Positions 50,059-62,559 of a stretch of 64,000 nucleotides of DNA are shown here, piece by piece (within the stretch, counting starts at the first letter, position 1; each line of letters starts with the position of its first letter). The notes under the pieces are model-generated. The model did no database searches and was not told the origin of the DNA. It worked only from the letters and a program-made list of their open reading frames with translations. Origin of the DNA: Escherichia coli (GTDB lineage: Bacteria; Pseudomonadota; Gammaproteobacteria; Enterobacterales; Enterobacteriaceae); the NCBI RefSeq assembly GCF_036507355.1, contig NZ_AP027877.1; one strand, 5' to 3'. The translations under genes and the position numbers were made by a program.

Positions 50059-50840
50059 ACCCGTCGCAACATGCTGAACAGTTTCAGAGCCAGTTAGCGA
50101 ACTATGTGCCACAGTTCACTCCCGAATTTTGGCCGGTGTGGTTGATCATTGCCGGAGTATTGCTGGTTGGGATGTGGTTGGTGCTGGGGCTGCACGCCTT
50201 GCTTCGTGCTCGTGGCGTGAAGAAATCAGCCACCGATCATGGTGAGAAGATTTATCTTTACAGCAAAGCGGTCAGATTATGGCACTGGTCGAATGCGTTA
50301 CTCTTTGTATTGTTGCTGGCAAGTGGGCTGATAAATCACTTTGCGATGGTGGGCGCAACTGCGGTTAAAAGTCTGGTTGCGGTGCATGAAGTTTGCGGAT
50401 TTTTGTTACTGGCATGCTGGCTCGGCTTTGTGCTGATCAATGCCGTTGGGGATAATGGTCACCACTATCGCATTCGTCGTCAGGGGTGGCTGGAACGAGC
50501 GGCAAAACAAACGCGATTTTATTTGTTTGGCATTATGCAGGGGGAAGAACATCCTTTCCCGGCAACAACCCAGTCTAAATTTAATCCCTTACAGCAGGTC
50601 GCCTATGTTGGTGTCATGTATGGATTGCTGCCGTTGTTACTATTGACGGGGCTGCTGTGTCTCTATCCGCAAGCCGTGGGAGATGTGTTTCCTGGCGTTA
50701 GATACTGGTTATTGCAGGCGCATTTTGCTCTGGCATTTATAAGCCTCTTTTTTATCTTCGGTCATCTTTATCTTTGCACCACGGGGCGTACGCCACACGA
50801 AACCTTTAAAAGCATGGTCGATGGCTATCACCGGCACTAA
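50055..50840 (+). CDS. ydhU: Membrane cytochrome b-like subunit (PhsC-like)
   Basis: 261-aa polytopic membrane protein; 4-bp overlap with ydhX. Confidence 0.85.
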   Translation: MNPSQHAEQFQSQLANYVPQFTPEFWPVWLIIAGVLLVGMWLVLGLHALLRARGVKKSATDHGEKIYLYSKAVRLWHWSNALLFVLLLASGLINHFAMVGATAVKSLVAVHEVCGFLLLACWLGFVLINAVGDNGHHYRIRRQGWLERAAKQTRFYLFGIMQGEEHPFPATTQSKFNPLQQVAYVGVMYGLLPLLLLTGLLCLYPQAVGDVFPGVRYWLLQAHFALAFISLFFIFGHLYLCTTGRTPHETFKSMVDGYHRH

Positions 50841-50843
50841 CGA

Positions 50844-51656
50844 ATGATCATTACACGAGCAGACCTGCGAGAATGGCGTATCGGAGCGGTGATGTATCGC
50901 TGGTTCCTGCGCCATTTCCCACGCGGCGGTAGTTATGCCGATATTCATCATGCACTGATTGAGGAAGGATATACGGACTGGGCGGAGAGTCTTGTTGAGT
51001 ATGCGTGGAAAAAATGGCTGGCTGATGAAAACTTCGCGCATCAGGAAGTTTCCTCTATGCAAAAACTGGCCACAGACCCCGGAGAGATACCATTTTGCAG
51101 TCAGTTTGCCCGCAGCGACGATCATGCTCGCATCGGCTGTTGTGAGGATAACGCCCGAATCGCAACCGCTGGGTATGCCGCGCAAATTGCGAGTATGGGT
51201 TATAGCGTGCGGATTGGAAGTGTCGGCTTTAACAGTCACATTGGCAGCTCCGGTGAACGCGCACGGGTTGCTGTAACCGGTAATTCTTCGCGGATAAGCA
51301 GCGCTGGAGATAGTAGTCGGATTGCGAATACCGGAATGCGAGTACGCGTTTGTACATTGGGTGAACGATGTCATGTCGCCAGTAATGGTGACCTGGTGCA
51401 AATCGCCAGCTTTGGCGCAAACGCCAGAATTGCCAACAGCGGCGACAATGTACACATCATTGCCAGCGGTGAAAATTCAACGGTAGTGAGCACGGGCGTG
51501 GTCGACTCAATTATTCTCGGGCCAGGGGGCAGCGCCGCACTGGCATATCATGACGGCGAAAGAGTTCGCTTCGCCGTCGCCATTGAAGGTGAAAACAATA
51601 TTCGAGCCGGAGTCCGCTATCGTCTTAATGAACAGCATCAGTTTGTTGAGTGCTGA
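50844..51656 (+). CDS. ydhT: Repeat protein of unknown function (last gene of ydhYVWXUT)
   Basis: 270 aa; the C-terminal two thirds consist of nonapeptide tandem repeats. Confidence 0.85.
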   Translation: MIITRADLREWRIGAVMYRWFLRHFPRGGSYADIHHALIEEGYTDWAESLVEYAWKKWLADENFAHQEVSSMQKLATDPGEIPFCSQFARSDDHARIGCCEDNARIATAGYAAQIASMGYSVRIGSVGFNSHIGSSGERARVAVTGNSSRISSAGDSSRIANTGMRVRVCTLGERCHVASNGDLVQIASFGANARIANSGDNVHIIASGENSTVVSTGVVDSIILGPGGSAALAYHDGERVRFAVAIEGENNIRAGVRYRLNEQHQFVEC

Positions 51657-51667
51657 TAGCTTTACCT

Positions 51668-53272
51668 TTAATCAAACGAAAGACGCCGACGAGCACGGGA
51701 TGCAGGCTTTACGACCGCCCGAGCCATCGCCTCACCAATTTCTGCACATGCCGTAAGTCCCTGAACGAAAGGCTGGTCGTGCATCAACCAGGGCAACGCG
51801 CCGAACGCTACGCGCCCACGAATATCTTCGGGTTGCTGTAACGTATAATCTTCGCCAACATCAGGGATTTCATCCCCTGTTTTCTGTAATTGTTCGCGTA
51901 GTCCATGGAAAGGAATATCTTTCATTTTAAGCGGACGCTGCCCGCGGGCATCAATAAAAACGTCAAACGAGTAGCTGTTGTCTTCCGTTTTCAGGACGGT
52001 GCGCGACTCATTAATTTCCATTTTGTAGTCTTCACCGAGGGCGAGAATATGAATGATTCCCGCTTCACGTAAGGCAAGTAGGCGACGAATAGACTCTGAA
52101 GGGATTGCCGCATAATTATCGATGAAAACCCGGGCAAGGCCTTTACTGAACCGTTTATGGTCGTGTTCATTCAGATGTGGAACAATTTCCTGTACTGCTT
52201 CATGCAGGCGCAGAATGACATAACGCCAGGGAACAGTATGTTTTTCTCGTTTATTGCGTTCGACTTCCTGGAGATTTTTTTCTGCCCAGTCAAATGGGTC
52301 GCGTTGTTTGCGCTCGGCAAACCAGGCTTGAGCAAAGAAATCGACATTCAGGCTCTCTAAGGCTATGCGTTGGCTCCAGTCTGGATCAGCAAACTTGATT
52401 TCCTCTACTATCAATCTAAATACCCGATCCAAAAGGCCATATTCGCCTTTTTGAATCTCAGCATTTAATGCCTGATCAGTGACGATGTGTAAGGGCTCGT
52501 AGGGAATAGGGCAATAGAAATCGGCTTCGGGTAAAATACCCGTGCGCGACATTAACGTAATATTTAGCTTTTCACTTGCGTTATCGCGGTGAAAAACGAC
52601 GTGTTGTTTATCATCTTCAATGAACGAACCATGCTGAATTGCCACTGCCATTGCCGCATCCAGTCCGCTCAAGGATGTTCCCATAATACCCACGTTACAC
52701 GCATCGACCTTTGCTTCCATCAGGCCTGACCACGGGCTGGGAAAATACGTTCGGATTGCTTCTTCTTCATCAGGCCAGACGTGACCCGTGGCAATCACCG
52801 CTAAATCAAACGTCTCGCTGGGTAAATCCTGATTTGTAGCGAGCATGACGCCAGCATTTGTAATTTGCAGATCGGTAACCTGGCATGATTCATAAACAGC
52901 CACTGCAAATTTTTGCTGTCGTGCCTGGTCTACTAATCGTAAAAATTGATCGCGGAAATATTCGCCCAGCAGAATTCGCGGTAAAAACTGACGATCGTGC
53001 AAGGTTTCTTTTTTAACGCCATAACGCTGGAGATGGCTGGCTTCTTGCTTTTGTAGCCATTCGAGATACGTACAATAAATCGGCGGTATTTCAATACTGG
53101 CAATATTTGCCAGCATCATTTTTGAGTTTTCCTCATCACTGTATGGCATCCCGACACCGGCCACATCAGCCTGCTCGAAGATAGAAATAGAAAGTGGAGT
53201 TTGTTGCTGTAGAAGCGAGAATAAGGTGTAGATCCCCGTAGGCCCGGCACCTACAATAGCAATTTTTTTCAT
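51668..53272 (-). CDS. ydhS: FAD/NAD(P)-binding protein of unknown function
   Basis: 534 aa with N-terminal Rossmann motif IAIVGAGPTG. Confidence 0.85.
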   Translation of the reverse strand: MKKIAIVGAGPTGIYTLFSLLQQQTPLSISIFEQADVAGVGMPYSDEENSKMMLANIASIEIPPIYCTYLEWLQKQEASHLQRYGVKKETLHDRQFLPRILLGEYFRDQFLRLVDQARQQKFAVAVYESCQVTDLQITNAGVMLATNQDLPSETFDLAVIATGHVWPDEEEAIRTYFPSPWSGLMEAKVDACNVGIMGTSLSGLDAAMAVAIQHGSFIEDDKQHVVFHRDNASEKLNITLMSRTGILPEADFYCPIPYEPLHIVTDQALNAEIQKGEYGLLDRVFRLIVEEIKFADPDWSQRIALESLNVDFFAQAWFAERKQRDPFDWAEKNLQEVERNKREKHTVPWRYVILRLHEAVQEIVPHLNEHDHKRFSKGLARVFIDNYAAIPSESIRRLLALREAGIIHILALGEDYKMEINESRTVLKTEDNSYSFDVFIDARGQRPLKMKDIPFHGLREQLQKTGDEIPDVGEDYTLQQPEDIRGRVAFGALPWLMHDQPFVQGLTACAEIGEAMARAVVKPASRARRRLSFD

Positions 53273-53397
53273 TGTTACTTACCTGTACGCATTCTTTCGA
53301 ATTTAGTGTTATCAGATAAGTTTGGTTGAAATTTTTAGAATTTGAGAAATTTCAGACAGGGATGAAAAGGGCGCTAACCGCCCTTGATTAAAATCTG

Positions 53398-53703
53398 TCA
53401 GGCGAGTTTTGCCTGATTGATTTGACTCAGTGGCTCATTGACATCGAAAACTTTGGCGACAACTTCCTCAACGCCGAGATTTTTCAGTCGGGCAGTGTGT
53501 TTTTCCAGATAGGCAAGGGCGCTTTTTTCATCAGTGAAAAGGTAGATCCCACCGGCTTCGTGGTTCTTTTCACTTTCGGTCCATACCTTCCACAGAAAAC
53601 CAGGTTCCTGATTAATCGACTCAGCAAGCGGTTTAAGCTGCTCAGCCATTGCGTCGCCAAATGGGCCATTGAAAGAAAAATGAAGTTGTAACAAAGTTGC
53701 CAT
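53398..53703 (-). CDS. ydhR: Small dimeric alpha+beta barrel protein (putative monooxygenase)
   Basis: 101-aa [41 protein letters not shown]... Confidence 0.85.
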
Positions 53704-53810
53704 AGCGATTCTCCTTCTGATAACGCATACGAAGACAGTGTAAATCTTTTAACGTATTGGATACAGAGAAGAAGCAGAGGGAAAAAGGAGAAGACCAGAT
53801 TAAGAAAATC

Positions 53811-53887
53811 TGGTGCGTCCGAGTGGACTCGAACCACCGACCCCCACCATGTCAAGGTGGTGCTCTAACCAACTGAGCTACGGACGC
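53811..53887 (-). tRNA. valW: tRNA-Val (anticodon GAC)
   Basis: Reverse complement GCGTCCGTAGCTCAGTTGGTTAGAGCACCACCTTGACATGGTGGGGGTCGGTGGTTCGAGTCCACTCGGACGCACCA; valV/valW assignment is by position only. Confidence 0.9.
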
Positions 53888-53891
53888 AGGA

Positions 53892-53968
53892 TGGTGCGTT
53901 CAATTGGACTCGAACCAACGACCCCCACCATGTCAAGGTGGTGCTCTAACCAACTGAGCTATGAACGC
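53892..53968 (-). tRNA. valV: tRNA-Val (anticodon GAC)
   Basis: Reverse complement GCGTTCATAGCTCAGTTGGTTAGAGCACCACCTTGACATGGTGGGGGTCGTTGGTTCGAGTCCAATTGAACGCACCA; 4-bp spacer to the second copy. Confidence 0.9.
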
Positions 53969-53994
53969 AACGTTGTAGGTGACAACGGGGACGA

Positions 53995-54023
53995 ATATTA
54001 GCGGCAGAGTGGGAAGGTGGCAA
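53995..54023 (-). promoter_or_regulatory. Sigma70 promoter of the valVW tRNA pair, with GC-rich discriminator
   Basis: Minus strand TTGCCA-N17-TAATAT followed by TCGTCCCCG. Confidence 0.6.
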
Positions 54024-54275
54024 GAGGCAAAACGTAATTTTCTGCGCTATTTCGACCGTTTGCAGAGCTTTTAAGCAAATTGGCTATATTTTGTTGATTT
54101 GCAAGGGCGATTTTTATTCAGGATCGCATTTACATCTGATACAACCCAATAATTCGTGTATCAGAGTTTAAACAGAGTTGTTTGCCACCATCTCAAATCT
54201 GTCGTGGATAAATCCTCCGTAGCCTTTACACTTAGGTAGCAATAAAGGCACACAGATGCAGCAAAGGAATAAATC

Positions 54276-60604: not shown

Positions 60605-61537
60605 ATGTGGTCAGAATATTCACTCGAAGTTGTTGATGCGGTAGCGCGTAATGGTAGTTTTAGCGCTGCAGCCCAGGAGTTGCATCGCGTTCCTTCTGCG
60701 GTCAGCTATACCGTGCGTCAGCTGGAAGAGTGGCTGGCGGTGCCGCTCTTTGAACGACGGCACCGTGATGTGGAGCTGACCGCTGCCGGAGCGTGGTTTC
60801 TCAAAGAAGGGCGCTCTGTTGTCAAAAAAATGCAGATCACCCGCCAGCAATGTCAGCAGATAGCGAACGGCTGGCGTGGTCAGTTAGCTATCGCAGTGGA
60901 TAATATTGTCAGGCCAGAACGTACACGGCAGATGATCGTTGATTTTTATCGCCATTTTGATGATGTCGAACTTCTTGTCTTTCAGGAAGTGTTCAACGGT
61001 GTCTGGGATGCGCTTTCCGACGGGCGCGTGGAACTGGCGATTGGCGCAACACGCGCGATTCCGGTAGGCGGTCGTTATGCCTTCCGGGATATGGGGATGC
61101 TAAGCTGGAGTTGCGTTGTTGCCAGTCACCACCCGCTGGCGTTGATGGATGGCCCGTTCAGCGATGATACGTTGCGCAACTGGCCGTCGTTGGTGCGCGA
61201 AGACACCTCGCGAACGCTACCTAAACGTATTACCTGGTTGCTGGATAACCAAAAAAGAGTTGTCGTGCCTGACTGGGAATCATCGGCAACCTGTATCTCG
61301 GCAGGATTATGCATAGGGATGGTGCCAACACATTTCGCCAAACCGTGGCTTAATGAGGGGAAGTGGGTAGCACTTGAATTGGAAAACCCCTTCCCGGATT
61401 CGGCATGTTGTCTGACATGGCAGCAAAATGATATGTCGCCTGCGTTAACCTGGCTGCTTGAGTATCTCGGCGATAGTGAGACGCTGAATAAGGAGTGGCT
61501 GCGGGAGCCGGAAGAGACTCCCGCAACGGCTGATTAA
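60605..61537 (+). CDS. ydhB: LysR-family transcriptional regulator (PunR/YdhB)
   Basis: 310 aa with N-terminal LysR HTH; divergent from ydhC. Confidence 0.88.
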
Positions 61538-62559
61538 CGACGATAGTCGCGGAACGGGCCGTCAGCCACGGAGCGGCGTTCAATCAAACGCGGATGCACT
61601 TCAATGGACTGCGGTTCTTCACGTTTGTTGACGATACGATCCAACAGCATGTTGAACGCTGTTTCACCCAGCGAATCTTTTGGCTGATGGATCGTGGTCA
61701 GCGCCGGCGTAAAATAGCGGGCGTTGCGCACGTTATCATAACCAATCAGCGAAACATCCTGCGGGACGCGCAGGCCCATTTCATCAGCAGCACAAAGTGC
61801 GCCCATTGCCATGATATCGCCACCACAGAAAACGGCAGTAGGGCGATGCGGCTGCGACAGGATTTGCTGCATGGCGCGATAACCGGATTCAGGTTCAAAG
61901 TCACCCTGCACAATCCAGCTTTCCGGCACCTTGATCATTGCTTCTTCCATCGCCTTCATAAAACCGGCAAGGCGGCCTGCGCCAGTGTTACGTTCCAGCG
62001 GGCCGGGGATAACGCCGATTTCGCGATGGCCGCGTTCTATCAGATAACGCCCGGCCATGTAGCCGCCTTCGAACGCGTTATCAATGACCGCATCGGTGAA
62101 GTCAGCTTTTGCTTCACCCCAGTCCATCACCACCATTGGGATATGGCGATACTCTTCCAGCATCGCCAGCAACGGCTCTGGGTACTCAGAACACATTACC
62201 AGCAGACCATCGACGCGTTTTTGCGCCATCATCGACAGATAAGCCCGCTGTTTCTCAAGATTGTTCCACGCATTGCCCAGAATCAGGGTGTAACCTTTCT
62301 GGAAGCAATTTTTTTCAACTGCTTCAATGATCTCGGCAAAATAGGCCGCTTCGCTGCTGGTCGCCAGCAAACCGATAGACTTGGTGTGGTTAACCTTCAG
62401 GCTACGCGCCACCGCGCTAGGGGAGTAGTGTAATTCTTTAATCGCTGCCCACACGGCGTTGCGCGTTTCTTCAGCGACGAAACGTGTTTTGTTGATCACG
62501 TGTGACACAGTTGTAGTGGAAACGTTTGCTCGTTTCGCTACATCTTTTATTGTTGCCAT
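61534..62559 (-). CDS. purR: Purine repressor (LacI family)
   Basis: 341-aa [47 protein letters not shown]... Confidence 0.97.

Follow-up and report, generated by a model that had tools for sequence, protein, structure and literature searches.

The stop codons of ydhT and ydhS lie 11 bp apart in the 64-kb window (the whole stretch of Escherichia coli DNA that was analysed). The two genes are adjacent, lie on opposite strands and meet tail to tail, which is the positional arrangement of a convergent excludon. This layout is real but ordinary and generic. It is probably a compact tail-to-tail junction without a dedicated terminator, at which transcript overlap is ended mainly by Rho, and a by-product of genome compaction rather than a selected switch; we infer that it has no regulatory consequence. 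The layout and the overlap of the ydhS and ydhT transcripts are already known from standard K-12 annotation and a published catalogue, so the junction, as it stands, matters little.

Features of the region are collected in Table 1. A megablast search found the region in 5421 of 5426 complete E. coli genomes, where the two genes are annotated ydhT/ydhS. In the MG1655 annotation, ydhS occupies 1747131..1748735 (+) and ydhT 1748747..1749559 (-), the gap likewise being 11 bp, and positions 51540-51900 of the window differ from K-12 at one base. The preliminary description had given the same spacing and the same gene names, and both agree with the coordinates and the MG1655 annotation. Its label of an "FNR-driven operon" is also correct: ydhT is the final gene of the FNR-activated ydhYVWXUT operon, which has a class II FNR site at -42.5 and is scored "Activated" (Myers 2013). 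An in-frame TAG (51657-51659) directly follows the ydhT TGA. The ydhS gene encodes an FAD/NAD(P)-binding protein (Pfam NAD_binding_9, E = 4.5e-31), and a Pfam search with ydhT returned no domain. Two short ORFs (51550..51756 and 51650..51841) span the junction on the + strand and were taken as chance ORFs antisense to ydhS.

Table 1. Features at and around the ydhT-ydhS junction, in window coordinates.
Feature	Coordinates	Strand	Description	Basis
ydhT	50844..51656	+	270 aa; ends ...QHQFVEC; TGA at 51654-51656	ORF list, translation, RefSeq annotation of matching genomes
ydhS	51668..53272	-	534 aa; ends ...RRRLSFD; TAA at 51668-51670 (tta on + strand)	ORF list, translation, annotation
Spacer between the two stop codons	51657..51667	none	11 bp, TAGCTTTACCT	
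Imperfect 18-pair hairpin, ydhT mRNA	51616..51660	+	3' arm holds the TGA-TAG stops; candidate weak/atypical intrinsic terminator stem	
Broken U-tract TTTACCTTTAAT	51661..51672	+	Directly after the hairpin; covers spacer and ydhS stop codon	Read from sequence
Weak terminator-like hairpin and T-run (CAGGGATTTCATCCCCTG TTTTCTGT)	51862..51887	+	~210 nt beyond the stop of ydhT, within ydhS	Consensus scan
Stable hairpin, arms GACGGCGAA / TTCGCCGTC	51552..51578	-	90-116 nt past the ydhS stop, within ydhT	Inverted repeat
C-rich, G-poor 78-nt stretch of ydhT readthrough RNA	51712..51789	+	Antisense to ydhS 3' end; candidate rut-like Rho loading region	
C-rich, G-poor rut-like stretch of ydhS readthrough RNA	51293..51370	-	Antisense to ydhT	
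ydhR intrinsic terminator (GGGCGGTTAGCGCCC + TTTTCATC)	53361..53383	-	ydhR lies upstream of ydhS	Sequence

Gaps this short are common in K-12. Six 50-kb stretches of the MG1655 annotation (300 kb) contain 41 convergent CDS pairs, whose gaps have a median of 46 bp. The gap is 11 bp or less in nine of the 41 pairs (22%), or in eight of 40 when ydhS-ydhT is left out, and four of the nine overlap. Stop-to-stop distances are 3 bp for yadE-panD, 0 bp for ydhK-sodC, 6 bp for glcC-yghO and 4 bp for asnA-viaA; the overlapping pairs are purR-punR (-4), rlmF-ybiO (-4), rbsR-hsrA (-35) and ybhQ-ybhR (-39). The geometry of these pairs is like that of ydhS-ydhT, with no room for an intergenic terminator. 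There is no difference in kind, and ydhS-ydhT stands at the looser end of the group. All nine sampled short-gap pairs are also on the ExcludonFinder overlap list, and another pair in the window overlaps by 4 bp. As estimated from the 300-kb sample, about one fifth of E. coli convergent pairs are without space for an intergenic terminator. Therefore, a tight tail-to-tail junction alone should not be flagged as remarkable.

The junction also varies between relatives. Juxtaposition of ydhS and ydhT is limited to Escherichia among the relatives compared. K-12 and four genomes of cryptic Escherichia clades (L003-L006) share the 11-bp spacer length; roughly half of the spacer bases are substituted between clades. 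In ATCC 25922 the ydhS stop has moved and the spacer is 5 bp; in NCTC9112, IS1414 is inserted in the 3' end of ydhS. E. albertii has no ydhS, and ydhR lies 63 bp from ydhT. In Citrobacter, an ABC-transporter cluster that is missing from Escherichia stands between ydhS and ydhT: ydhT there meets the end of an ABC permease gene at a distance of 4 bp, and ydhS is found about 3.9 kb beyond. These comparisons indicate that the junction is evolutionarily labile and that the spacer evolves freely. The 11-bp length was considered as a conserved feature, being kept in the four clade genomes, but was rejected because it is 5 bp in ATCC 25922 and because E. albertii and Citrobacter do not have the gene pairing.

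A consensus terminator scan found nothing in or adjoining the 11-bp spacer, which cannot contain a hairpin plus U-tract. The preliminary description had stated that there is no room for a terminator hairpin; this holds for the spacer and fails for the coding sequence, where the ydhT mRNA can form a hairpin at 51616-51660. That hairpin, with the UUUACCUUU behind it, is the sole candidate at the junction, and it differs from a GC-rich stem-loop and U-tract 3' of the stop: it reaches back into the coding end, its bulged stem is rich in A/U and G-U, and its U-tract is interrupted. The + strand fold is more stable than shuffled sequence (dG -16.8 kcal/mol, z -2.66, equalled by 0/200 shuffles), and the complementary fold on the - strand does not exceed shuffled sequence (z -0.43). 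When pairs were counted over 14 orthologs from Escherichia and Citrobacter, 70% of cells paired, a level that 62/500 shuffles reached. With no pairing support in these orthologs and no covariation signal, the hairpin was rejected as a selected or conserved element. Global folding of the 300-nt flanks was no better than shuffles on either strand, and an Rfam E-value search of 50500-54200 returned no family at the junction. The + strand hairpin inside ydhS (stem 51862-51879) is weak, with a fold of just -7.5 kcal/mol (z -1.3). The - strand hairpin inside ydhT is stable (-16.8 kcal/mol, z -3.0, 2/200 shuffles as stable), is without a U-tract and is possibly a pause site or a 3'-end-protecting stem.

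At a compact junction of this kind, polymerase leaving ydhT would continue into the antisense strand of ydhS and polymerase leaving ydhS into that of ydhT. As each would run into the opposite gene, the two transcripts would overlap by tens to a few hundred nt. Rho would then terminate diffusely inside the opposite gene on both strands, and the 3' ends would be trimmed back to incidental hairpins. At the weak hairpins 51616-51660 (+), 51862-51879 (+) and 51552-51578 (-), polymerase may also pause, or some transcripts may end by intrinsic termination.

The base composition of the readthrough RNAs is permissive for this. Untranslated, C-rich and G-poor stretches of roughly 70-80 nt, rut-like by composition alone, occur on both strands. 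On the + strand, C minus G is 12 (96th percentile of all 78-nt windows in the 64 kb), and the C/G ratio of the ydhT readthrough RNA is 1.4-1.6 through the first ~140 nt past the stop. On the - strand, C minus G is 15 (98.7th percentile), with a C/G ratio of up to 2.1. Because the readthrough RNAs are untranslated, C-rich and G-poor, termination within the opposite gene is most likely brought about by Rho, judging from a composition that only permits it. Rho-dependent suppression of antisense and readthrough transcription was reportedly described by Peters et al. in 2012 and is reviewed in PMC12360218. The ydhT/ydhS transcripts likewise give untranslated antisense RNA, with C > G within 50-400 nt of the stops.

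Transcript overlap at the junction has been published. ydhS-ydhT is among the 165 convergent excludons of ExcludonFinder (about entry 66 of its Table 1; Sanmartin et al., NAR 2025, PMC12288877), a table of pairs for which RNA-seq shows overlapping transcripts in 50% or more of 58 MG1655 transcriptomes. The overlapping 3' ends proposed in the preliminary description are thus reported independently. ydhS-ydhT has a short intergenic distance and an RNA-seq-defined 3' overlap in common with the other catalogued pairs; overlap in the catalogue is defined by coverage alone, whereas the hallmark of an excludon is mutually exclusive expression.

The expression data used here are aerobic or per-gene. 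Term-seq tables from aerobic cultures (Adams 2021) place no discrete 3' end within any of ydhS, ydhT and ydhU, which fits diffuse termination or low expression, and the SMRT-Cappable-seq supplements do not mention these three genes. Antisense reads are recorded, per gene, for both ydhS and ydhT. In wild-type total RNA, ydhS sense reads reach 49.2 RPM, ydhT antisense 2.6 and ydhU antisense 1.0 (Huang 2020, Table S1c). By our own arithmetic, antisense density is ~10% of the ydhS sense density over ydhT and ~4% over ydhU, a fall that would be expected were ydhS readthrough to die away inside the first gene. Double-stranded RNA captured by p19 amounts to 25-376 RPM over ydhS versus 3-6 RPM over ydhT (Huang 2020 data). 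It should be noted that such fairly abundant dsRNA over ydhS speaks against an ordinary junction, in that sense-antisense pairing in ydhS is real and could matter.

It is unlikely that the + strand hairpin and the following UUUACCUUUAAU act as an embedded intrinsic terminator that ends most operon transcripts at ~51667-51672. In that case the + transcript would reach only a few nt into ydhS, and nearly all of the overlap would come from ydhS readthrough. While the hairpin is stabler than shuffles and U is found at 5/8 of the first downstream bases, the long stem has two bulges and is rich in A/U and G-U, unlike a canonical GC-rich stem, its U-tract is broken by ACC, and it was not called by the consensus scan. 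ATCC 25922 carries a T-to-C change that converts a G-U pair to G-C, in favour of a terminator, but beyond E. coli proper the outer stem is not kept, and no covariation signal is seen. Overlapping terminators are predicted by TransTermHP in 146 of the 165 convergent excludons (ExcludonFinder, PMC12288877), and the aerobic Term-seq data contain no 3' end at this site. Furthermore, the stop codon lies within the 3' arm, so a terminating ribosome should block folding of the hairpin. Li et al. (2015) describe repression by the ribosome of terminators a few bp from a stop codon, which argues against efficient termination here. The hairpin plus UUUACCUUU could nonetheless be a working weak intrinsic terminator, a possibility that runs against the ordinary-junction view. 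Collision-driven bidirectional termination (Ju et al. 2019; Wang et al.), in which a hairpin in the overlap zone makes converging polymerases pause before they collide head-on and are released, is very improbable. Neither Rho nor a U-tract would be needed for the defined, overlapping 3' ends that it would yield, and the model has been put forward for hundreds of convergent E. coli pairs without canonical terminators. ydhS-ydhT has a + strand hairpin at the junction and a - strand hairpin 90-116 nt into ydhT, but collision needs appreciable simultaneous transcription from both sides, and both genes are weak aerobically (ydhT ~4 RPM, ydhS 8-49 RPM). Folding of one hairpin in both transcripts, the mark of a bidirectional terminator, was not seen at the junction (z -2.66 on the + strand, -0.43 on the - strand), nor were Term-seq 3' ends. 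The bidirectional terminators of Ju, Li and Liu (2019), such as ynaJ-uspE, are reportedly also convergent pairs without a canonical intrinsic terminator. Typical examples there have an intergenic hairpin folding on both strands and well-expressed genes, whereas ydhS-ydhT has an 11-bp spacer, a one-strand junction hairpin and low expression.

Antisense interference between the operon and ydhS, for which the preliminary description saw scope, is a possibility. In a functional convergent excludon, anaerobic FNR-driven readthrough would lower ydhS through polymerase collision, cutting of the sense-antisense duplex by RNase III, or both, and aerobic ydhS transcription would do the reverse, such that an anaerobic oxidoreductase system and a flavoprotein would be expressed in a mutually exclusive manner. 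We consider this doubtful, despite the transcript overlap catalogued by ExcludonFinder. The p19 reads over ydhS are RNase III-dependent, as a functional excludon would predict, but they could stem from an internal antisense promoter, such as the promoter-like site at 52215-52242 (+), and p19, which captures few 3'-UTR dsRNAs, could not validate convergent excludons (ExcludonFinder authors). By our own arithmetic, ydhS antisense density is close to ydhT sense density in wild-type total RNA (7.98 RPM/1605 bp versus 3.95 RPM/813 bp), which is compatible with extensive readthrough. Operon-distal ydhT and ydhU are expressed weakly, which speaks against a functional excludon. The 11-bp spacing is retained in the four Escherichia clade genomes, but the juxtaposition is confined to that genus, and E. 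albertii, Citrobacter, NCTC9112 and ATCC 25922 either lack it or carry an altered form. In addition, ydhYVWXUT is anaerobically induced and ydhY/V/W and ydhR are listed in the supplementary tables of Myers 2013, whereas ydhS is in 0/15 of them (including aerobic versus anaerobic and wild type versus fnr), thresholded lists that make this weak evidence. An oxygen-responsive excludon, in which FNR-induced readthrough would silence ydhS anaerobically through collision plus RNase III with a strength set by Rho efficiency, seems more doubtful still. If reciprocal regulation were true, the junction would provide one more validated bacterial excludon, a modest and locus-specific result, and would tie together an anaerobic oxidoreductase operon and a flavoprotein that are both uncharacterised.

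On the far side of ydhS, the ydhR terminator coincides with a Term-seq "primary" 3' end at MG1655 1747040(+) (Adams et al. 2021). Transcription of ydhS is therefore largely separate from that of ydhR.

The ydhT and ydhS reading frames end tail to tail, and the preliminary description was correct in spacing their stop codons 11 bp apart: ORF coordinates, translation and the MG1655 reference annotation agree. By direct reading and translation, YdhT ends ...QHQFVEC before TGA (51654-51656), YdhS ends ...RRRLSFD before TAA (tta at 51668-51670 on the + strand), and the 11 bases between are TAGCTTTACCT. By Megablast, 5421 of 5426 complete E. coli genomes carry the region, with the annotation phsC(ydhU)-ydhT / ydhS-ydhR. 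Since MG1655 has identical geometry (ydhS 1747131..1748735 (+), ydhT 1748747..1749559 (-)) and one base differs between K-12 and the window across 51540-51900, the spacing is that of the reference annotation. Tandem in-frame stops, TGA-TAG, end ydhT (51654-51659); Escherichia sp. MOD1 has TGA-TAA, and in the other clades a sense codon comes after TGA.

Features at and around the ydhT-ydhS junction, in window coordinates
Feature	Position	Strand	Remarks
ydhT ORF	50844..51656	+	270 aa; ORF list
Stable hairpin without U-tract	51552-51578	-	90-116 nt beyond ydhS stop
Imperfect 18-pair hairpin	51616-51660	+	last 39 nt of ydhT and first spacer bases
ydhS ORF	51668..53272	-	534 aa; ORF list
Weak hairpin and T-run	51862-51887	+	consensus scan, fold
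Sigma-70-like promoter match	52215-52242	+	ATGACA-16-TATGTT; antisense within ydhS; only match in 50500-53600
ydhR intrinsic terminator	53361-53383	-	GGGCGGTTAGCGCCC + TTTTCATC; matches Term-seq 3' end MG1655 1747040 (+)

The preliminary description further held that transcripts of ydhS and of the FNR-driven ydhT operon overlap at their 3' ends. This inference is sound and already published: a full-text search combining ydhT with ydhS located the pair in ExcludonFinder Table 1 (NAR 2025, PMC12288877), which lists 165 convergent pairs with RNA-seq-defined transcript overlap in at least 50% of 58 MG1655 transcriptomes. The operon label is also right, as Myers et al. 2013, citing Partridge et al. 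2008, assign the operon to their 'Activated' class, with an FNR site at -42.5.

Six 50-kb segments of the MG1655 annotation were searched exhaustively for convergent CDS pairs. The median gap among the 41 pairs is 46 bp, with a cluster of gaps at 33-53 bp, a length that suits a single shared hairpin terminator. In nine (22%) the gap is 11 bp or less; four of these overlap, and all nine are on the ExcludonFinder list, as simple geometry predicts. Within the window itself, purR/punR-like convergent ORFs (60605..61537 (+) and 61534..62559 (-)) overlap by 4 bp. Thus, tight tail-to-tail junctions are a common class and this one is no outlier. The identity of the purR/punR-like pair, which is tighter than ydhT-ydhS, rests on position relative to K-12; purR-punR is likewise on the published excludon list.

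A consensus scan found no terminator in or adjoining the 11-bp spacer, and no Rfam family was found at the junction. The imperfect hairpin spanning the ydhT stop was considered as a working terminator: it folds at -16.8 kcal/mol (z -2.66; 0 of 200 shuffles equally stable), and UUUACCUUUAAU follows directly on the + strand. However, the - strand fold of the region does not exceed shuffles (z -0.43), and the stem is rich in A/U and G-U pairs with two bulges. The stop codon sits within the 3' arm, so ribosomes terminating there should keep the stem from folding; Li et al. 2015 observed almost full repression of a terminator located a few bp after a gene. Across 14 Escherichia/Citrobacter orthologs, 70% of cells pair, a level matched by column shuffles (62/500), and beyond E. 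coli proper the outer stem is not preserved. On these four points (strand, stem, stop codon and orthologs), we therefore take the hairpin to be incidental; at best it would act as a weak, lineage-specific terminator. It should also be noted that the ydhR terminator is missing from the consensus scan output.

Untranslated, C-rich, G-poor RNA is the established Rho substrate. Over roughly the initial 140 nt, readthrough RNA from the + strand has a C/G ratio of 1.4-1.6, with its maximum at 51712-51789 (96th percentile among all 78-nt windows), and readthrough RNA from the - strand reaches 2.1 around 51293-51370 (98.7th percentile). Because both turn C-rich and G-poor, base composition suggests that Rho may terminate each inside the opposite gene. 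The best-supported mechanism, which we consider fairly probable, is that the junction would lack a dedicated terminator, the ydhT and ydhS transcripts would read through into each other, and both would end inside the opposite gene, mainly through Rho; we are less confident of the Rho step than of the overall picture.

Among the 3' ends tabulated from Term-seq by Adams et al. 2021 is that of the ydhR terminator, and none lies within ydhS, ydhT or ydhU, a result compatible with diffuse termination, low aerobic expression or both. In wild type, sense/antisense RPM are 49.2/8.0 for ydhS, 3.9/2.6 for ydhT and 9.4/1.0 for ydhU (Huang et al. 2020, Table S1c). Relative to ydhS sense density, antisense density is thus ~10% over ydhT and ~4% over ydhU, the pattern expected if ydhS readthrough fades within a few hundred nucleotides. 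Sense density over ydhT is about equal to antisense density over ydhS, and the latter could come from readthrough or from an internal antisense promoter. Captured by p19, dsRNA amounts to 25-376 RPM for ydhS and 3-6 RPM for ydhT (Huang et al. 2020, Table S1b); according to the ExcludonFinder authors, p19 data were unable to validate convergent excludons (PMC12288877). The candidate sigma-70-like promoter within ydhS might be a source of antisense RNA, which would explain the fairly high ydhS value.

Antisense interference between ydhT and ydhS, for which the preliminary description saw scope, is a possibility with mild evidence against it. ydhS is missing from all 15 supplementary tables of Myers 2013, those for aerobic vs anaerobic and WT vs fnr among them, and ydhY, ydhV, ydhW and ydhR are present there; the absence of ydhS speaks weakly against a strong reciprocal effect. 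Genes flanking ydhS on both sides respond to O2 in that study, with ydhS unlisted. ydhR is ~2-fold higher anaerobically (ratio 0.456, Table S12), and an FNR ChIP peak at ydhR (K-12 U00096.2 position 1744589; window ~53700-53800, upstream of the gene) is in the class without FNR-dependent expression change.

Scanning a genome collection with YdhT returned 12 loci. In four Escherichia clade genomes ydhT and ydhS are still exactly 11 bp apart; with roughly half of its bases substituted, the spacer holds no conserved motif. E. albertii (locus L007, 4814-5182) lacks ydhS, and ydhR lies 63 bp after ydhT. In Citrobacter amalonaticus and relatives, the - strand gene whose end lies 4 bp from ydhT encodes an ABC-transporter permease (Pfam BPD_transp_1) and belongs to a four-gene - strand cluster between ydhS and ydhT (L008-L010, 4811-8807), with ydhS ~3.9 kb further along on the strand of the permease gene. 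The junction is found in 5417 of 5426 E. coli genomes. In ATCC 25922 (L022, 340-400), the ydhS stop is mutated from TAA to CAA, extending YdhS by two residues (...SFNQM) and reducing the gap from 11 to 5 bp; in NCTC9112 (L021, 3561-4909), an IS1414 (IS256-like) transposase gene inside the ydhS 3' end parts the two genes by ~1.3 kb. These comparisons thus indicate an Escherichia-specific, change-tolerant junction, which speaks for its being a by-product of compaction and against a regulatory device under selection. NCTC9112 also has ydhV truncated beside IS1.

Two further observations concern the neighborhood. By genomic SELEX-chip, Shimada et al. 2012 (PMC3535384) report that RcdA, a TetR-type regulator, has a peak inside ydhT, between ydhS and ydhU. 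An Rfam match to HPnc0260, 'bacterial antisense RNA' (53687-53849 (+), 110 bits, over the gathering score), lies antisense to two tRNA-Val genes (53814-53968); the likeliest explanation is an artefact in which the Rfam model picks up tRNA complements.
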